From: an uncultured Gemmatimonadales bacterium
GTDB taxonomy: Bacteria; Gemmatimonadota; Gemmatimonadetes; Gemmatimonadales; GWC2-71-9
DNA: 64,000 nucleotides
NCBI GenBank assembly: GCA_963748815.1
Contig: CAVVKJ010000005.1
Coordinates: forward strand, 288,001-352,000
Reading direction: 5' to 3'
Positions within the stretch are counted from its first letter, which is position 1. Each line of letters opens with the position of its first letter. The translations under genes were made by a program, and so were the position numbers. Below the pieces are notes generated by a model that ran no database searches, was not told the DNA's origin, and saw nothing but the letters and a program-made list of their open reading frames with translations. Below are positions 18,301-23,470 of this stretch, in pieces.

Positions 18301-20258
<1,958 letters not shown>

Positions 20259-20405: not shown

Positions 20406-20420
20406 TGGCACCAATTTCGC
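20406..20420 (+). promoter_or_regulatory. possible sigma-54 promoter; a TTGACA hexamer also lies at 20386-20391
   Basis: TGGCACCAATTTCGC has GG-N10-GC spacing and one mismatch to TGGCAC-N5-TTGC. Confidence 0.35.
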
Positions 20421-20468: not shown

Positions 20469-20562
20469 TCCGCCCGATAATAGCACACCCGGAGCGATCC
20501 GGGGCCGCAAAACTGGAGGTCTCATCCGAAGTCGGATGAGATAGCTCGGTGCCGAAGGTGGA
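20469..20562 (+). ncRNA. GEMM-I (c-di-GMP-I class) riboswitch aptamer, A20 variant predicted to bind 3',3'-cGAMP
   Basis: P1 TCCGCC/GGTGGA; J1/2 CGATAATA; P2 GC-ACA-CCCGGA-GCGA-TCCGGG-GCC-GC; AAA junction; P3 ACTGGAG-GTCTCATCCGA/TCGGATGAGAT-AG-CTCGGT; 3' GCCGAA. Confidence 0.85.
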
Positions 20563-20579
20563 ATGCACACGACTCGATG

Positions 20580-20630
20580 AGCGTGGCGTTTCGGCCGGTT
20601 GGCGTGGCGAAACGACCACGCTTTGCTTAT
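20580..20630 (+). terminator. putative intrinsic terminator / riboswitch expression platform
   Basis: AGCGTGG-CGTTTCG...CGAAACG-A-CCACGCT stem followed by TTGCTTAT, between the aptamer and the STAS RBS. Confidence 0.6.
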
Positions 20631-20652
20631 GTCGGGCCAGGGAGAACACCGC

Positions 20653-20967
20653 ATGGTGCCCGACACCCAGACCGTCCGAGAACTGACCGCGCCGCCGTCG
20701 CTCGGACTTGAAACCCGCGCCACTTTCCGCCAGGCCGCCGTCGGCGTCCTCGAGGAGATGCCCGAAGGGGAGAGCCGCCTGGTCATCGACCTGGCTGGCA
20801 CGCGCCACGTGGATTCGGCCGGCCTCGGCGCCCTGATGCTGGTGCAGCGACGCGCCGGCGAGCGGCGTCAGCGGGTGACCCTCCGCTCGGCGAGCGAGGA
20901 ACTTCGGTTCCTCCTCATGCTCACCAAGCTGGAGGACCTCTTCGAACTGGAACCGAAGCAGGTGTAG
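20653..20967 (+). CDS. STAS domain protein (anti-sigma factor antagonist)
   Basis: GGAGA RBS; LVIDLAGTRHVDSAGLGALM with the phosphorylatable Ser motif DSAG. Confidence 0.9.
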   Translation: MVPDTQTVRELTAPPSLGLETRATFRQAAVGVLEEMPEGESRLVIDLAGTRHVDSAGLGALMLVQRRAGERRQRVTLRSASEELRFLLMLTKLEDLFELEPKQV

Positions 20968-21024: not shown

Positions 21025-21396
21025 GTGATGACCGAACCGCGTGCACCACGCCGGGTGTTGTTCATCGAAGATGAGCCCGCCCTGCGCATCAGCTACGAAC
21101 GCTTCTTCCGGCCGCGCTACGCCATGGCGTTTGCGTCGTCGGGGGCGGAGGCGCTGGCCCGGGTCGCCGAGGGGCCGCTGGACGTCGTGGTGCTCGACAT
21201 GCGTCTCCCCGACACCGACGGCGTCGAGCTGCTCCGGCGCATCCGCGAAACCCATCCGGACATCCCCGTCATCATCACCACCGCCTACGTGAGCGTGGAG
21301 CCGCAGCTTCGCGTCCTCGACCTGGCGCACAGCGCCTACCTGATCAAGCCCTTCGACCTCGACGAACTCGGCGCCGCCATTGATCGAGCCGGCTGA
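21025..21396 (+). CDS. single-domain response regulator (REC)
   Basis: VLFIEDE, VVVLDMRLPDTDG, PVIITTAY, YLIKPFD. Confidence 0.92.
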   Translation: MMTEPRAPRRVLFIEDEPALRISYERFFRPRYAMAFASSGAEALARVAEGPLDVVVLDMRLPDTDGVELLRRIRETHPDIPVIITTAYVSVEPQLRVLDLAHSAYLIKPFDLDELGAAIDRAG

Positions 21397-22099
21397 CGCA
21401 CCCCTCCTGGCGGCGCGCGGCCTGGTGCGCGCCTTCGGGGCGTTGCAGGTCCTGCGCGGCGTGGATCTCGAGGTGCGGCGCGGCGAAATGCTGGCGGTCG
21501 CCGGCTCGAACGGCGCCGGCAAGACGACGCTGCTCCGGCTCCTGGCGGGGCTCATGCGCCCCAGCGCTGGCGAGGTGCACATCCACGGCCGGCGGCTGAC
21601 CCGCGACGACCCGGCGCCCCGGCGCGCCATCGGGCTCCTGTCGCACCACACCTTTCTCTACGACGACCTCACCCCGGCGGAAAACCTCCTCTTCACGGCC
21701 AAGCTGTACGGCCTCCCCGACGCCGCGGCCGCCACCCGTACGGCGCTCGACGAAGTCGGGCTTTCCGCGCGCGCCAACACCCCCGTGCGCCACCTGAGCC
21801 GGGGCCTCCTGCAGCGCGCCGCGATTGCCCGCGCGCTGCTGCACCAGCCCGACGTCATCCTCCTCGACGAGCCGTTCACCGGGCTCGACGCGCCGTCCGC
21901 CGACCGATTCCGGGGGCTGCTGGCGTCGCAACTGGCCCGGGGCCGGGCGCTGGTGCTGGTCAGCCACCATCTTGCCGAGGCGTGGGAACTGGCGACCCAC
22001 GTGGCGGTGCTGGCCGGCGGTCGCTGGGCGCTCGAGGGCGAGCGCCCCGCCGACCTCGCGGCCTTTCACGCGCGCTACGCTGAGTTGGTCCATGGTTGA
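21380..22099 (+). CDS. ccmA: heme ABC exporter ATP-binding protein CcmA
   Basis: GSNGAGKTT, LYDDLTPAENL, LSRGLLQR, LLDEPFTGLD; lies upstream of ccmB/C. Confidence 0.88.
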   Translation: MIEPADAPLLAARGLVRAFGALQVLRGVDLEVRRGEMLAVAGSNGAGKTTLLRLLAGLMRPSAGEVHIHGRRLTRDDPAPRRAIGLLSHHTFLYDDLTPAENLLFTAKLYGLPDAAAATRTALDEVGLSARANTPVRHLSRGLLQRAAIARALLHQPDVILLDEPFTGLDAPSADRFRGLLASQLARGRALVLVSHHLAEAWELATHVAVLAGGRWALEGERPADLAAFHARYAELVHG

Positions 22100-22772
22100 G
22101 TTCATGCGCCTGGCCTTCGCGATCGCCGGCAAGGACATCCGGCTCGAGCTGCGCAGCCGCACCGCGCTGCTCTCGGCCATCGTCTTTTCCGCCCTGGTGC
22201 TGGTGGTCTTCAACTTCGCGCGCGATCCCACCGCGCTGGCCGCCGTGGATCTCGCGCCGAGTGTCCTCTGGGTCACCTTCGCCTTCGGGGCGGTCATCGC
22301 GCTCAACCGCGCCTTCTACGTGGAGCGCGAAAACGCCGCGCTCGATGGCATCCTCCTCGCGCCGGTGCCGCGGAGCGCGCTTTATGTCGGCAAGCTGCTC
22401 GCCAACCTGGCGTTCGTGGGTGTGGTGGAGGCGGTGGCGCTGCCCCTCTTCGTGCTGTTCTTCAACGTCTCCCTGGGGCATGCCCTTCCCGGCATTCTCG
22501 GCGTCACCGCGCTCGCCACGATCGGCTTCGTGGCGGTCGGCACCATTTTCAGCGCCATGGTGGTGCGGACCCGCTTTGCTGAACTGATGCTCCCGGTGCT
22601 GCTCCTGCCGTTCATGGTCCCGCCGCTGGTCGGCGCGGTCCAGGTGACGGCCAAGCTCCTGGCGGGCCGCCCGTTGAGCGAGATGATGGGCTGGCTTAGG
22701 TTACTGACGCTCTATGATGTCGGCTTCGTGACCCTCTGTATCCTCGTCTTTCCGGCGGTCGTCGACGAATGA
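22092..22772 (+). CDS. ccmB: heme exporter protein CcmB
   Basis: KDIRLELRSR, ERENAALDGILLAP, LMLPVLLLPFMVP. Confidence 0.9.
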   Translation: MVEFMRLAFAIAGKDIRLELRSRTALLSAIVFSALVLVVFNFARDPTALAAVDLAPSVLWVTFAFGAVIALNRAFYVERENAALDGILLAPVPRSALYVGKLLANLAFVGVVEAVALPLFVLFFNVSLGHALPGILGVTALATIGFVAVGTIFSAMVVRTRFAELMLPVLLLPFMVPPLVGAVQVTAKLLAGRPLSEMMGWLRLLTLYDVGFVTLCILVFPAVVDE

Positions 22773-23470
22773 CACCCGAACTCCTTGCTGCCACCCGCAT
22801 CGTCCGCCGAGGCCAGGTGCTCACGGCCCTCGGCCTGCTCGCGGCCGCGGTCGTCTATGTCATTGCGCTCTGCTACACCCCGGTGGAGGTGCGGCAGGGA
22901 CTCGCGCAGAAGATCTTCTACGTGCACGCGCCGGCGGCGTGGGGTGCCCTCGTGGCCTTCGCCGTCGTCGGCATCGTGAGCATCCTCTACCTCTGGCTGC
23001 AGGACGAGCGGCTCGACCTCTTCGCGGCCAGCTCGGCGGAGGTCGGCATCGCCTTTTCCCTCGTGATGCTGACGACCGGCCCGATCTGGGGCAAGACCGT
23101 CTGGGGCACCTGGTGGACCTGGGACGCGCGCCTGACCCTGACCCTCTTCCTCTTCTTCCTGTTCATCGGGTACCTCGCGCTGCGGGCGGCGGTGCAGGAC
23201 CGCGGCGAACGCGCGCGGTTCAGCGCGGTGGTCGGGATCATGGGCCTGGTGCTCGTGCCGTTCATCCACCTGAGCGTCTACCTCTTCCGGACCCTGCATC
23301 CCCAGCCCGTGCTCCTGAAGCCGAGCGCGCCGTCGATGCCGCCGGAAATGCTGCGCGCGCTGCTCTCGGGGATGGCCGCATTCACGATCCTCTACATCGG
23401 GTTCGTCGTCCTGCGCTACGGATTGGCGCGGCTGGACAACCTGCGGGAAGGAGCCGGCGATGCCTTTTGA
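22769..23470 (+). CDS. ccmC: heme exporter/chaperone CcmC
   Basis: IFYVHAPAAW and WWD motif TGPIWGKTVWGTWWTWDARLT, plus FRTLHP. Confidence 0.93.
   Translation: MTPELLAATRIVRRGQVLTALGLLAAAVVYVIALCYTPVEVRQGLAQKIFYVHAPAAWGALVAFAVVGIVSILYLWLQDERLDLFAASSAEVGIAFSLVMLTTGPIWGKTVWGTWWTWDARLTLTLFLFFLFIGYLALRAAVQDRGERARFSAVVGIMGLVLVPFIHLSVYLFRTLHPQPVLLKPSAPSMPPEMLRALLSGMAAFTILYIGFVVLRYGLARLDNLREGAGDAF

Follow-up and report, generated by a model that had tools for sequence, protein, structure and literature searches.

Signalling by cyclic GMP-AMP (cGAMP), made by GGDEF-derived synthases and read by riboswitches, is understood from work on Geobacter, Myxococcus and Bdellovibrio, and has been described as narrowly distributed. 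We analysed a 64,000-nucleotide stretch of DNA from an uncultured Gemmatimonadales bacterium (contig CAVVKJ010000005.1, positions 288,001 to 352,000; here called the window), in which a preliminary description made from the letters alone had proposed a cGAMP-type GEMM-I riboswitch (GEMM-Ib) at 20469..20562 and, with it, a cGAMP signalling network in this lineage. The element is a real GEMM-I aptamer, well conserved, that carries adenine instead of guanine at the ligand-contacting position G20 (the A20 mark). It may be a cGAMP-preferring switch fed by a GGDEF cyclase of the same genome with Asn and Phe at two specificity positions, a reading to which we would assign a probability of about 0.45. 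In a literature search no link of Gemmatimonadota with cGAMP or with GEMM riboswitches was found, the term GEMM also matching the name of the phylum.

The closest described aptamers are the GEMM-Ib riboswitches of Geobacter, namely Gs1761 before pgcA, Gm0970 and the pilM switch. The window aptamer shares with them the GEMM-I fold, the adenine at the G20 column and the C that receives a guanine of the ligand. Their genomes are alike as well in having several copies of the aptamer, a link to cytochromes (cytochrome genes in Geobacter, the ccmABC genes here) and a GGDEF-derived candidate synthase together with an HD-GYP protein bearing an Rxx(Q/N) motif. The synthases differ, the Geobacter enzyme having Ser348 and Tyr304 with a receiver as input domain, whereas the candidate presented here has Asn348 and Phe304 with an Fe-S/hydrogenase-like input. 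The pilM element is described as a compact terminator ON switch (PMC9262584), whereas the platform following the window aptamer looks translational, with a long-range strand that opposes the aptamer. The Geobacter GEMM-Ib aptamers prefer 3',3'-cGAMP, whereas that of the window is a candidate member by A20 and by its fold.

Also close are the A20 aptamers that bind cyclic di-GMP (c-di-GMP), such as Cbe 1-2, which combine this fold with an A at the G20 position; by sequence alone the window RNA cannot be told apart from them. The source genome of Cbe 1-2 is not reported to make cGAMP via a Hypr enzyme, whereas here variants at the specificity positions of a cyclase and of a phosphodiesterase travel with the aptamer in one family. 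Should these aptamers prefer cGAMP, the pathway would reach an abundant, little-cultured phylum of soil and water and would again touch respiration, in this case through cytochrome c maturation.

A conserved GEMM-I aptamer with adenine at the G20 column

The whole 64-kb window was scanned by cmscan at the curated gathering thresholds of Rfam. The sole match was RF01051 (c-di-GMP-I) at 20472-20556 on the forward strand, with 49.8 bits against a cut-off of 35 and an E-value of 9.8e-07, and it covered the full model (positions 1-87). The covariance-model comparison suggested in the preliminary description was thus significant, and all of the GEMM-I elements listed there, P1, P2 closed by GCGA, GC-AAA, P3 with GTCTC/GAGAT and AG, and GCCGAA, were present at their places (Table 1). 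The c-di-GMP-I-GGC variant (RF03167) was tried and ruled out, with 45 bits against a cut-off of 59; GCAAAA is present, and the variant has G for the first A of this junction.

A20482 was aligned to position 11 of the RF01051 model, where the consensus is G. We take this position to be G20 of Vc2 and its counterpart in Gs1761 to be A14. The assignment is consistent with the layout of the GGC-variant model and with the description of the column given in PMC6140456.

Covariation was analysed in 56 distinct aptamers of the same subtype, collected partly from relatives and partly by scanning species genomes, with the structure written out by hand. Paired cells made up 94.7% of the total, compared with 29-44% when the 3' partners were slid by 1-3 columns. 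Changes on both sides were detected in 17 of the 26 pairs, and the observed values were reached by none of 500 shuffles. All 6 pairs of P1 showed such changes, and P1, P2 and P3 are backed by covariation. The A after the GC pair and the C of GCCGAA were invariant in 56/56 aligned rows; these ligand-contacting residues presumably are A47 and C92 in Vc2 numbering. By eye, GYGA loops on P2 went with an unbroken GUCUC/GAGAY helix and, in 3 of the 56 rows, GAAA loops went with CUAAAG...UAKGA. Within the genus the stretch 20469..20562 was almost unvarying, and the tip of P3 was found to vary freely there. We concluded that 20469..20562 is a real GEMM-I aptamer, well conserved and with the A20 mark.

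The assembly that contains the window consists of 19 contigs and is 86% complete. It has two RF01051 matches, the second on another contig with 53.8 bits and likewise with A at position 11, so that both the adenine read in the preliminary description and its idea that more copies might be found held up. A sample of 41 genomes of the order was then read at position 11 in all of its 70 RF01051 matches, which were spread over 33 of the genomes and comprised 51 A and 19 G. In the genus of the window genome the aptamer was present in 17/17 genomes and A in 33/33 aptamers; both copies were found in 16 of these genomes and one copy in the remaining, fragmented one. In other genera of the order A and G aptamers were mixed within single genomes. 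The gene that follows the window aptamer encodes a STAS-domain protein, and such a gene stands behind an A20 aptamer in all of the genus as well as in G018, G020, G021, G022, G023 and G025; A20 was fixed in every one of these STAS-leader orthologues that was read, and G was found at the other GEMM-I aptamers of G021 and G022.

Among the 80 loci listed by a pattern scan for the subtype in species genomes, 42 belonged to Gemmatimonadota (37 A, 5 G) and 38 to other phyla (9 A, 29 G); none of the 80 came from Geobacter. Leaders like that of the window were carried by other Gemmatimonadales records, L186 matching all 109 bases printed and L180 matching through the aptamer, in agreement with the phylum that the preliminary description had thought probable.

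The G20 aptamers L011 (G017), L018 (G022) and L045 (G019) precede genes whose products have, by eye, a type IV pilin-like N terminus, and the A20 aptamers of G022 and G019 precede other genes, in G022 the STAS gene. From this difference, A20 and G20 aptamers appear to have separate regulons. A third class of aptamer combines A20 with GCAGAG instead of GCAAAG and with a 3' GCCAGY, so that the ligand contacts differ at two places. Eight copies of it were noted (L040, L041, L043, L049 and L067 in G019, L013 and L046 in G027, L042 in G031), at least three of which precede genes for secreted or lipoprotein-like products. The second aptamer of the window genome precedes a gene for a lipoprotein-like protein of 143 residues with an HEMLH motif (L001 982-1413, reverse strand), followed by rho; this protein is kept in the genus and has no Pfam or NCBIfam match.

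A candidate cyclase and a candidate phosphodiesterase

GGDEF domains were read at the base-reading column, defined as the last residue of NDxxGHxxG-, which is D344 of PleD by alignment and S348 of GacA according to PMC6456294. In the window genome 12 GGDEF matches were obtained, belonging to about 10 genes of which two are frame-split. The column could be read in 9 domains and was Asp in 8 and Asn in one; in one degenerate domain it was unreadable, and two short matches do not reach it. The Asn-type cyclase is a protein of 568 residues, encoded about 44 kb beyond the end of the window on the same contig. Besides the GGDEF domain, whose Asn aligns with D344 of PleD, it comprises two 4Fe-4S motifs, a region like the iron-hydrogenase large subunit and one more Fe-S motif.

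Full-length orthologues of the Asn-type cyclase were found in 19/41 genomes of the order, all of family f1, and Asn as well as RYGGDEF were present in 19/19. At the cross-dimer position, Tyr304 in GacA, they have Phe (15), Tyr (3) or Leu (1), whereas 9 of the 10 Asp-type paralogues from the same search have Arg, and the motif of these paralogues is GGEEF in 8, all of them with Arg, GGEEL in one and unread in one. Arg is found at this position in 94% of diguanylate cyclases, and the enzymes that make mainly cGAMP carry Tyr, Ser, Ala or Gln there (PMC6456294). The same source gives Ser348, a non-Arg cross-dimer residue and GGDEF only as correlates of Hypr activity, natural Ser/Thr-348 enzymes never being described in it with GGEEF. 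By comparison, the Asn-type cyclase lacks Ser/Thr at 348 and has the central Asp of GGDEF and a non-Arg cross-dimer residue in 19/19 orthologues. With the Hypr enzymes GacA, GacB and Bd0367 it shares a base-reading residue other than Asp, an aromatic cross-dimer residue other than Arg, the central Asp in GGDEF and the RxxD I-site; it differs in having Asn where they have Ser/Thr at 348, and is likened to them from its sequence. Lying outside the window, this Asn/Phe GGDEF protein with its redox-type input domain would be the more novel part of the system.

A DNA pattern for the Asn type, which requires ND..GH..GN and misses variants, matched 21/41 genomes of the order and none of the controls. 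The four genomes of the genus that lack the Asn-type cyclase also lack the neighbouring gene or the locus, or have the locus at a contig end. When the pattern was written instead for Ser, Thr and neighbouring codons, 11 matches were obtained, of which 6 were due to chance in broken frames and 5 were real GGDEF domains with Ser348, Tyr304 and GGDEF. These Hypr-signature enzymes occur in 5/41 genomes (L125 in G019, L131 in G036, L132 in G028, L133 in G026, L134 in G040). Four of the five genomes have no RF01051 match, and any cGAMP made there must therefore be read otherwise than by a GEMM-I aptamer. G019 lacks the Asn type but has the Ser348/Tyr304/GGDEF enzyme, which was counted in favour of a cGAMP ligand.

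The preliminary description had also proposed a search for HD-GYP cGAMP phosphodiesterases, and one candidate was found. Among the five HD-GYP domains of the window genome, a receiver-HD-GYP protein has RPYQ aligned to RPYK of PmGH and keeps HHERWDGDGYP and LHDIGK, so that by its residues it would belong to the Rxx(Q/N) group of PmxA type. RxxQ characterises PmxA, which is specific for cGAMP. Among the orthologues of the receiver-HD-GYP protein, Gln was present in 23/23 of those read in family f1 and Arg in 5/5 of those read in family f2; two more loci have no readable motif. Rxx(Q/N) was reported in 4.69% of HD-GYP domains, and 5 of the 6 proteins tested degraded cGAMP, 3 of them selectively (10.1101/600031). 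A membrane HD-GYP protein with the canonical RPYR is encoded 1.8 kb after the Asn-type GGDEF gene on the contig of the window (L259 721-2154, forward strand), and between the two lies the gene for a 251-residue protein of no known family.

Taken together, these proteins and aptamers could form a complete second cyclic-dinucleotide pathway run by one Gemmatimonadales family, a proposal that we regard as tentative. The writer would be a novel form of promiscuous GGDEF enzyme (Asn348/Phe304) that is fused to sensor domains of 4Fe-4S and [FeFe]-hydrogenase-like type and makes cGAMP in response to redox state or hydrogen, and the eraser would be the receiver-HD-GYP with RxxQ. The readers would be two A20 riboswitches. 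One of them, lying behind a sigma-54 promoter, would control the amounts of a partner-switching pair and the extent of heme export for cytochrome c maturation. If true, this would be Hypr-type cGAMP signalling in a new phylum and, in addition, a second amino-acid solution for ATP in the GGDEF site. If the Asn/Phe cyclase accepts ATP, the one-position rule of Ser/Thr by which such enzymes are recognised in sequences would be too narrow.

cGAMP, c-di-GMP or another ligand

On the reading that we prefer, the ligand would be a cyclic dinucleotide that is read by the C, in a Watson-Crick pair with G, and by A20482, most likely 3',3'-cGAMP over c-di-GMP. Its source would be the conserved 4Fe-4S/hydrogenase-like/GGDEF cyclase with Asn for Asp, Phe for the cross-dimer Arg, and GGDEF rather than GGEEF.

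A number of results weigh against a cGAMP ligand. Published binding data show that A20 is necessary for the cGAMP class yet neither defines it nor predicts selectivity: the G20A mutant of Vc2 bound c-di-GMP at 53 nM and cGAMP at 120 nM; for Cbe 1-2, whose A20 is natural, the values were 30 nM for c-di-GMP and 463 nM for cGAMP; and the cGAMP preference of Gs1761 ranged from about 3-fold to much more by construct and salt, with the P1 stem under suspicion (PMC6140456). Point mutations low in P2 alter the selectivity as well (PMC9262584). Of the label "cGAMP-type" used in the preliminary description, the adenine at the G20 column was retained; that this adenine makes a cGAMP sensor was not, as A20 aptamers can bind c-di-GMP equally well or better (PMC6140456). 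The 8 Asp-type GGDEF domains of the window genome, in about 7 genes, imply that the cell produces c-di-GMP, which could fill the aptamer. No GGDEF of the Ser/Thr-348 Hypr type was found among the 9 readable domains of this 86%-complete genome or, by pattern, in the 17 genomes of the genus (0/9 and 0/17), and no SMODS CD-NTase was found in the window genome. The search for a synthase therefore returned no known type and, instead, the Asn348/Phe304-type GGDEF, for which no biochemistry was found in the literature search. Of the network that the preliminary description had inferred, the Asn-type cyclase and the RxxQ HD-GYP have come to light and a synthase of known type has not, which leaves it plausible and unproven.

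The distribution of the three components is a further point on the same side. The near-complete genomes G025, G027, G031 and G033 carry A20 aptamers, that of G025 on a STAS leader, and lack both patterns, Asn and Ser; the HD-GYP orthologue of G025, G031 and G033 has RxxR. Counted by genus within the order, 6 genera combine A20 with the Asn pattern, 6 have only A20, 3 have only Asn and 4 have neither. In the genomes of other phyla, the Asn pattern was detected in 1/9 of those whose aptamer of the subtype has A20 and in 2/28 of those with G20, and a broad RxxQ pattern in 0/37. This broad pattern was used for the census in place of an earlier one with an orthologue-specific tail, and both miss HD-GYP proteins with I or M at the flanking residues. 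In further Gemmatimonadota genomes the broad pattern was found in 3/13, in two of these together with the Asn pattern. Because A20 occurs without the enzyme variants in relatives and in other phyla, we concluded that the trio is a trait of one family of kin and no general companion of A20.

Much of this evidence fits equally an ordinary or bispecific GEMM-I switch that reads c-di-GMP in the cell, with the Asn-type GGDEF and the RxxQ HD-GYP unrelated to it, and we consider such a switch a serious contender, although somewhat short of an even chance. A20 would then tune the affinity down to a useful range, or would be tolerated via a protonated adenine that pairs with guanine. Besides the affinities of Vc2 G20A and Cbe 1-2 and the preference of Gs1761, which was only about 3-fold in some constructs, the Asp-type GGDEF domains (one of them in a GGDEF-EAL protein) and three RxxR HD-GYP proteins of the window genome speak for c-di-GMP. 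So does the result that neither a G20 aptamer nor a c-di-GMP-II aptamer for reading c-di-GMP at the RNA level was found in this genome at its 86% completeness, as does A20 without the Asn pattern in complete relatives and in 8/9 genomes of other phyla. What this explanation accounts for less well is that A is invariably retained on the STAS leader in genomes whose other leaders keep G (G021, G022), and that the three specificity-position variants come together in family f1. Should the aptamers turn out to bind c-di-GMP, they would be a clean warning not to annotate cGAMP riboswitches by A20 on its own.

It is improbable that the aptamer reads some other dinucleotide made by the Asn-type enzyme, for example cyclic di-AMP (c-di-AMP) or a mixed product besides 3',3'-cGAMP. 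An amide side chain could pair with the Watson-Crick face of adenine, and no DAC domain, the mark of c-di-AMP synthases, was found in the window genome; at 86% completeness, however, such a gene could merely be absent from the assembly. The CC of GCCGAA, with the ligand-pairing C column that we presume to be C92 of Vc2, is invariant in 56/56 rows, from which it follows that the ligand needs at least one guanine.

Leader, direction of control and operon

The features of the leader and of the genes behind it are given in Table 1.

Table 1. Features of the riboswitch leader and of the following genes in the window.
Feature	Position	Strand	Basis
Candidate sigma-54 type promoter, TGGCAC-N5-TCGC, GG and GC ten bases apart	20406..20420	+	sequence reading
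GEMM-I (c-di-GMP-I fold) aptamer including P1	20469..20562	+	RF01051 score, covariation, genus conservation
P1	TCCGCC 20469-20474 with GGTGGA 20557-20562	+	sequence reading
J1/2, CGATAATA, last base A20482	20475-20482	+	sequence reading
Adenine at G20 column, ligand-contacting position	20482	+	RF01051 alignment
P2	20488-20493 with 20498-20503, GCGA loop 20494-20497	+	sequence reading
GC then AAA junction	20507-20511	+	sequence reading
P3	GTCTC 20519-20523 with GAGAT 20538-20542, then AG 20543-20544	+	sequence reading
GCCGAA	20551-20556	+	sequence reading
Alternative hairpin 20557..20595 (P1 3' strand with 5' arm of spacer hairpin; possible antiterminator), with GCCGAA included	20551-20599	+	minimum-free-energy fold
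Spacer hairpin, 14 pairs and one bulge (20580-20622), then TTTGCTT; terminator-like	20580..20628	+	folding, terminator scan
Strand before the Shine-Dalgarno sequence, GCTTATGTCGGGC (20625-20637), then Shine-Dalgarno GGGAG (20640-20644)	20625..20644	+	RNAduplex; ATG at 20653
STAS-domain protein (anti-sigma-factor-antagonist type), first gene after the switch	20653..20967	+	Pfam STAS_2 E 2e-12, STAS E 2.2e-07
Stand-alone response-regulator receiver	21025..21396	+	Pfam Response_reg E 1.2e-24
ccmA	21380-22099	+	Pfam ABC_tran 1.2e-32
ccmB	22092-22772	+	Pfam CcmB 1.1e-31
ccmC	22769-23470	+	Pfam Cytochrom_C_asm 2.7e-27

The strand before the Shine-Dalgarno (SD) sequence, here called the pre-SD strand, is complementary to the 5' side of the aptamer, GCCCGATAATAGC (20472-20484), which comprises half of P1, J1/2 and A20. 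We used RNAduplex to search for the best partner of this aptamer strand within 250 nt downstream and compared the result with 200 shuffles. In the window the best partner was the pre-SD strand, with -20.7 kcal/mol and a z of -2.8, matched by 2/200 shuffles. The long-range helix of the second copy reached -22.6 kcal/mol and that of G018 -31.4 kcal/mol (z -6.3, 0/200 shuffles); in G004, G009 and G011 it was about -26 kcal/mol (0/200 shuffles), and it was the best duplex also in G022 and G021. The second copy as well as G018, G021, G022 and G023 have the same arrangement of strands, in which the letters differ between lineages yet the pairing is kept. Among the G20 aptamers of relatives a z of -2 was reached by 2/19. 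In leaders of the window type the UCC of P1 can in addition pair with the GGA of the SD sequence.

The comparison between lineages favours a contest between the aptamer and the pre-SD strand for the 5' side of the aptamer, which inclines us slightly towards an ON switch; the folding energies are not decisive. Without ligand, the 5' strand of the aptamer (half of P1, J1/2 and A20) would pair with the pre-SD strand, and UCC of P1 with GGA of the SD sequence. With ligand bound, the 5' strand would be locked in the aptamer and the ribosome site freed. Against an ON switch of this kind, the long-range helix was weak in 3 of the 17 genus leaders (G006, G007 and G008, z above -1) and in G023, and it was not the best duplex in G020 or G025. 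When the aptamer was masked in folding, the unpaired probability of the SD sequence went up in 2 of 7 leaders, down in one and stayed about the same in 4.

The spacer between aptamer and gene would also allow a transcriptional OFF switch of the type known from Cd1, the c-di-GMP OFF riboswitch of Clostridioides difficile, and this for any ligand. Cd1 and the window leader share the 5' and 3' strands of P1, a switching strand and a terminator strand, and in both the antiterminator reaches into GCCGAA; the strand order is that described for Cd1 (PMC9262584). Without ligand, the 5' arm of the long hairpin would have the P1 3' strand and GCCGAA as its partner, and a P1 stabilised by ligand would free this arm of 20580-20622, leading to a stop at TTTGCTT. 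The alternative hairpin (-22.5 kcal/mol when folded alone) indeed competes with P1 and with the long form of the spacer hairpin (-28.3 kcal/mol). The 43-nt hairpin 20580-20622 was identical in 17/17 genus leaders apart from one loop base, with flanks that vary, which fits strands that serve two pairings. The constraint on these 43 nt exceeds what a terminator stem needs.

The window leader differs from Cd1 in a second, shorter hairpin that is possible in either state and in an extra pre-SD strand that pairs with the aptamer 5' side. We consider the OFF switch less likely than not. The short hairpin, the inner 7-pair form at 20601-20622 picked by the terminator scan (-12.1 kcal/mol), precedes the same T-tract and was kept in a fold with the aptamer enforced. 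The stretch of the alternative hairpin is invariant in the genus and hence shows no covariation, the T-tract is weak, and the spacer hairpins differ in other genera. RNA-library contigs, moreover, read through the hairpin into the gene.

Contigs of the leader were present in 4/4 of the metatranscriptome runs examined, from four studies. One RNA-library contig spans 20472-20645, and another bridges 20532-20764 into the STAS gene. They lend weak support to expression of the leader, as DNA can be present in RNA libraries. Two RNA contigs from two studies that end at 20627 were considered as signs of termination and rejected, since the strains diverge there and we read the ends as branch points of the assembly graph. 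A leader peptide encoded by a small open reading frame from ATG 20577 was likewise rejected, the ATG being replaced in G003, G015 and G016, and so was a local SD hairpin (20630-20637 with 20659-20666), which by eye is kept only partly in the genus.

TGGCAC-N5-TCGC lies about 50 nt 5' of the aptamer and is nearly invariant in 17/17 leaders of the window type in the genus. TGGCAY-N5-NYGC was found 45-60 nt 5' of the aptamer in seven other genera (G018, G020-G025), and the window genome encodes an rpoN DNA-binding domain (211 bits). The motif resembles what we take to be the -24/-12 consensus of sigma-54 promoters, and 20406-20420 is a candidate promoter of this type by its letters. A sigma-54 promoter ahead of a riboswitch leader is unusual.

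The riboswitch sits in the 5' leader of an operon of STAS, receiver and ccmABC genes. The frames of the five genes overlap or are closely spaced, and ccmABC stands for heme export in cytochrome c maturation. The STAS protein also matched the NCBIfam anti-sigma factor antagonist model, below the cut-off of that model. Upstream, on the other strand, an acetyl-CoA synthetase gene (18301-20258) is found in three overlapping frames. The two frame-split GGDEF genes mentioned above lie elsewhere in the genome (C17:109284/109598 and C10:64089/64348), and such splits are either assembly indel errors or broken genes.

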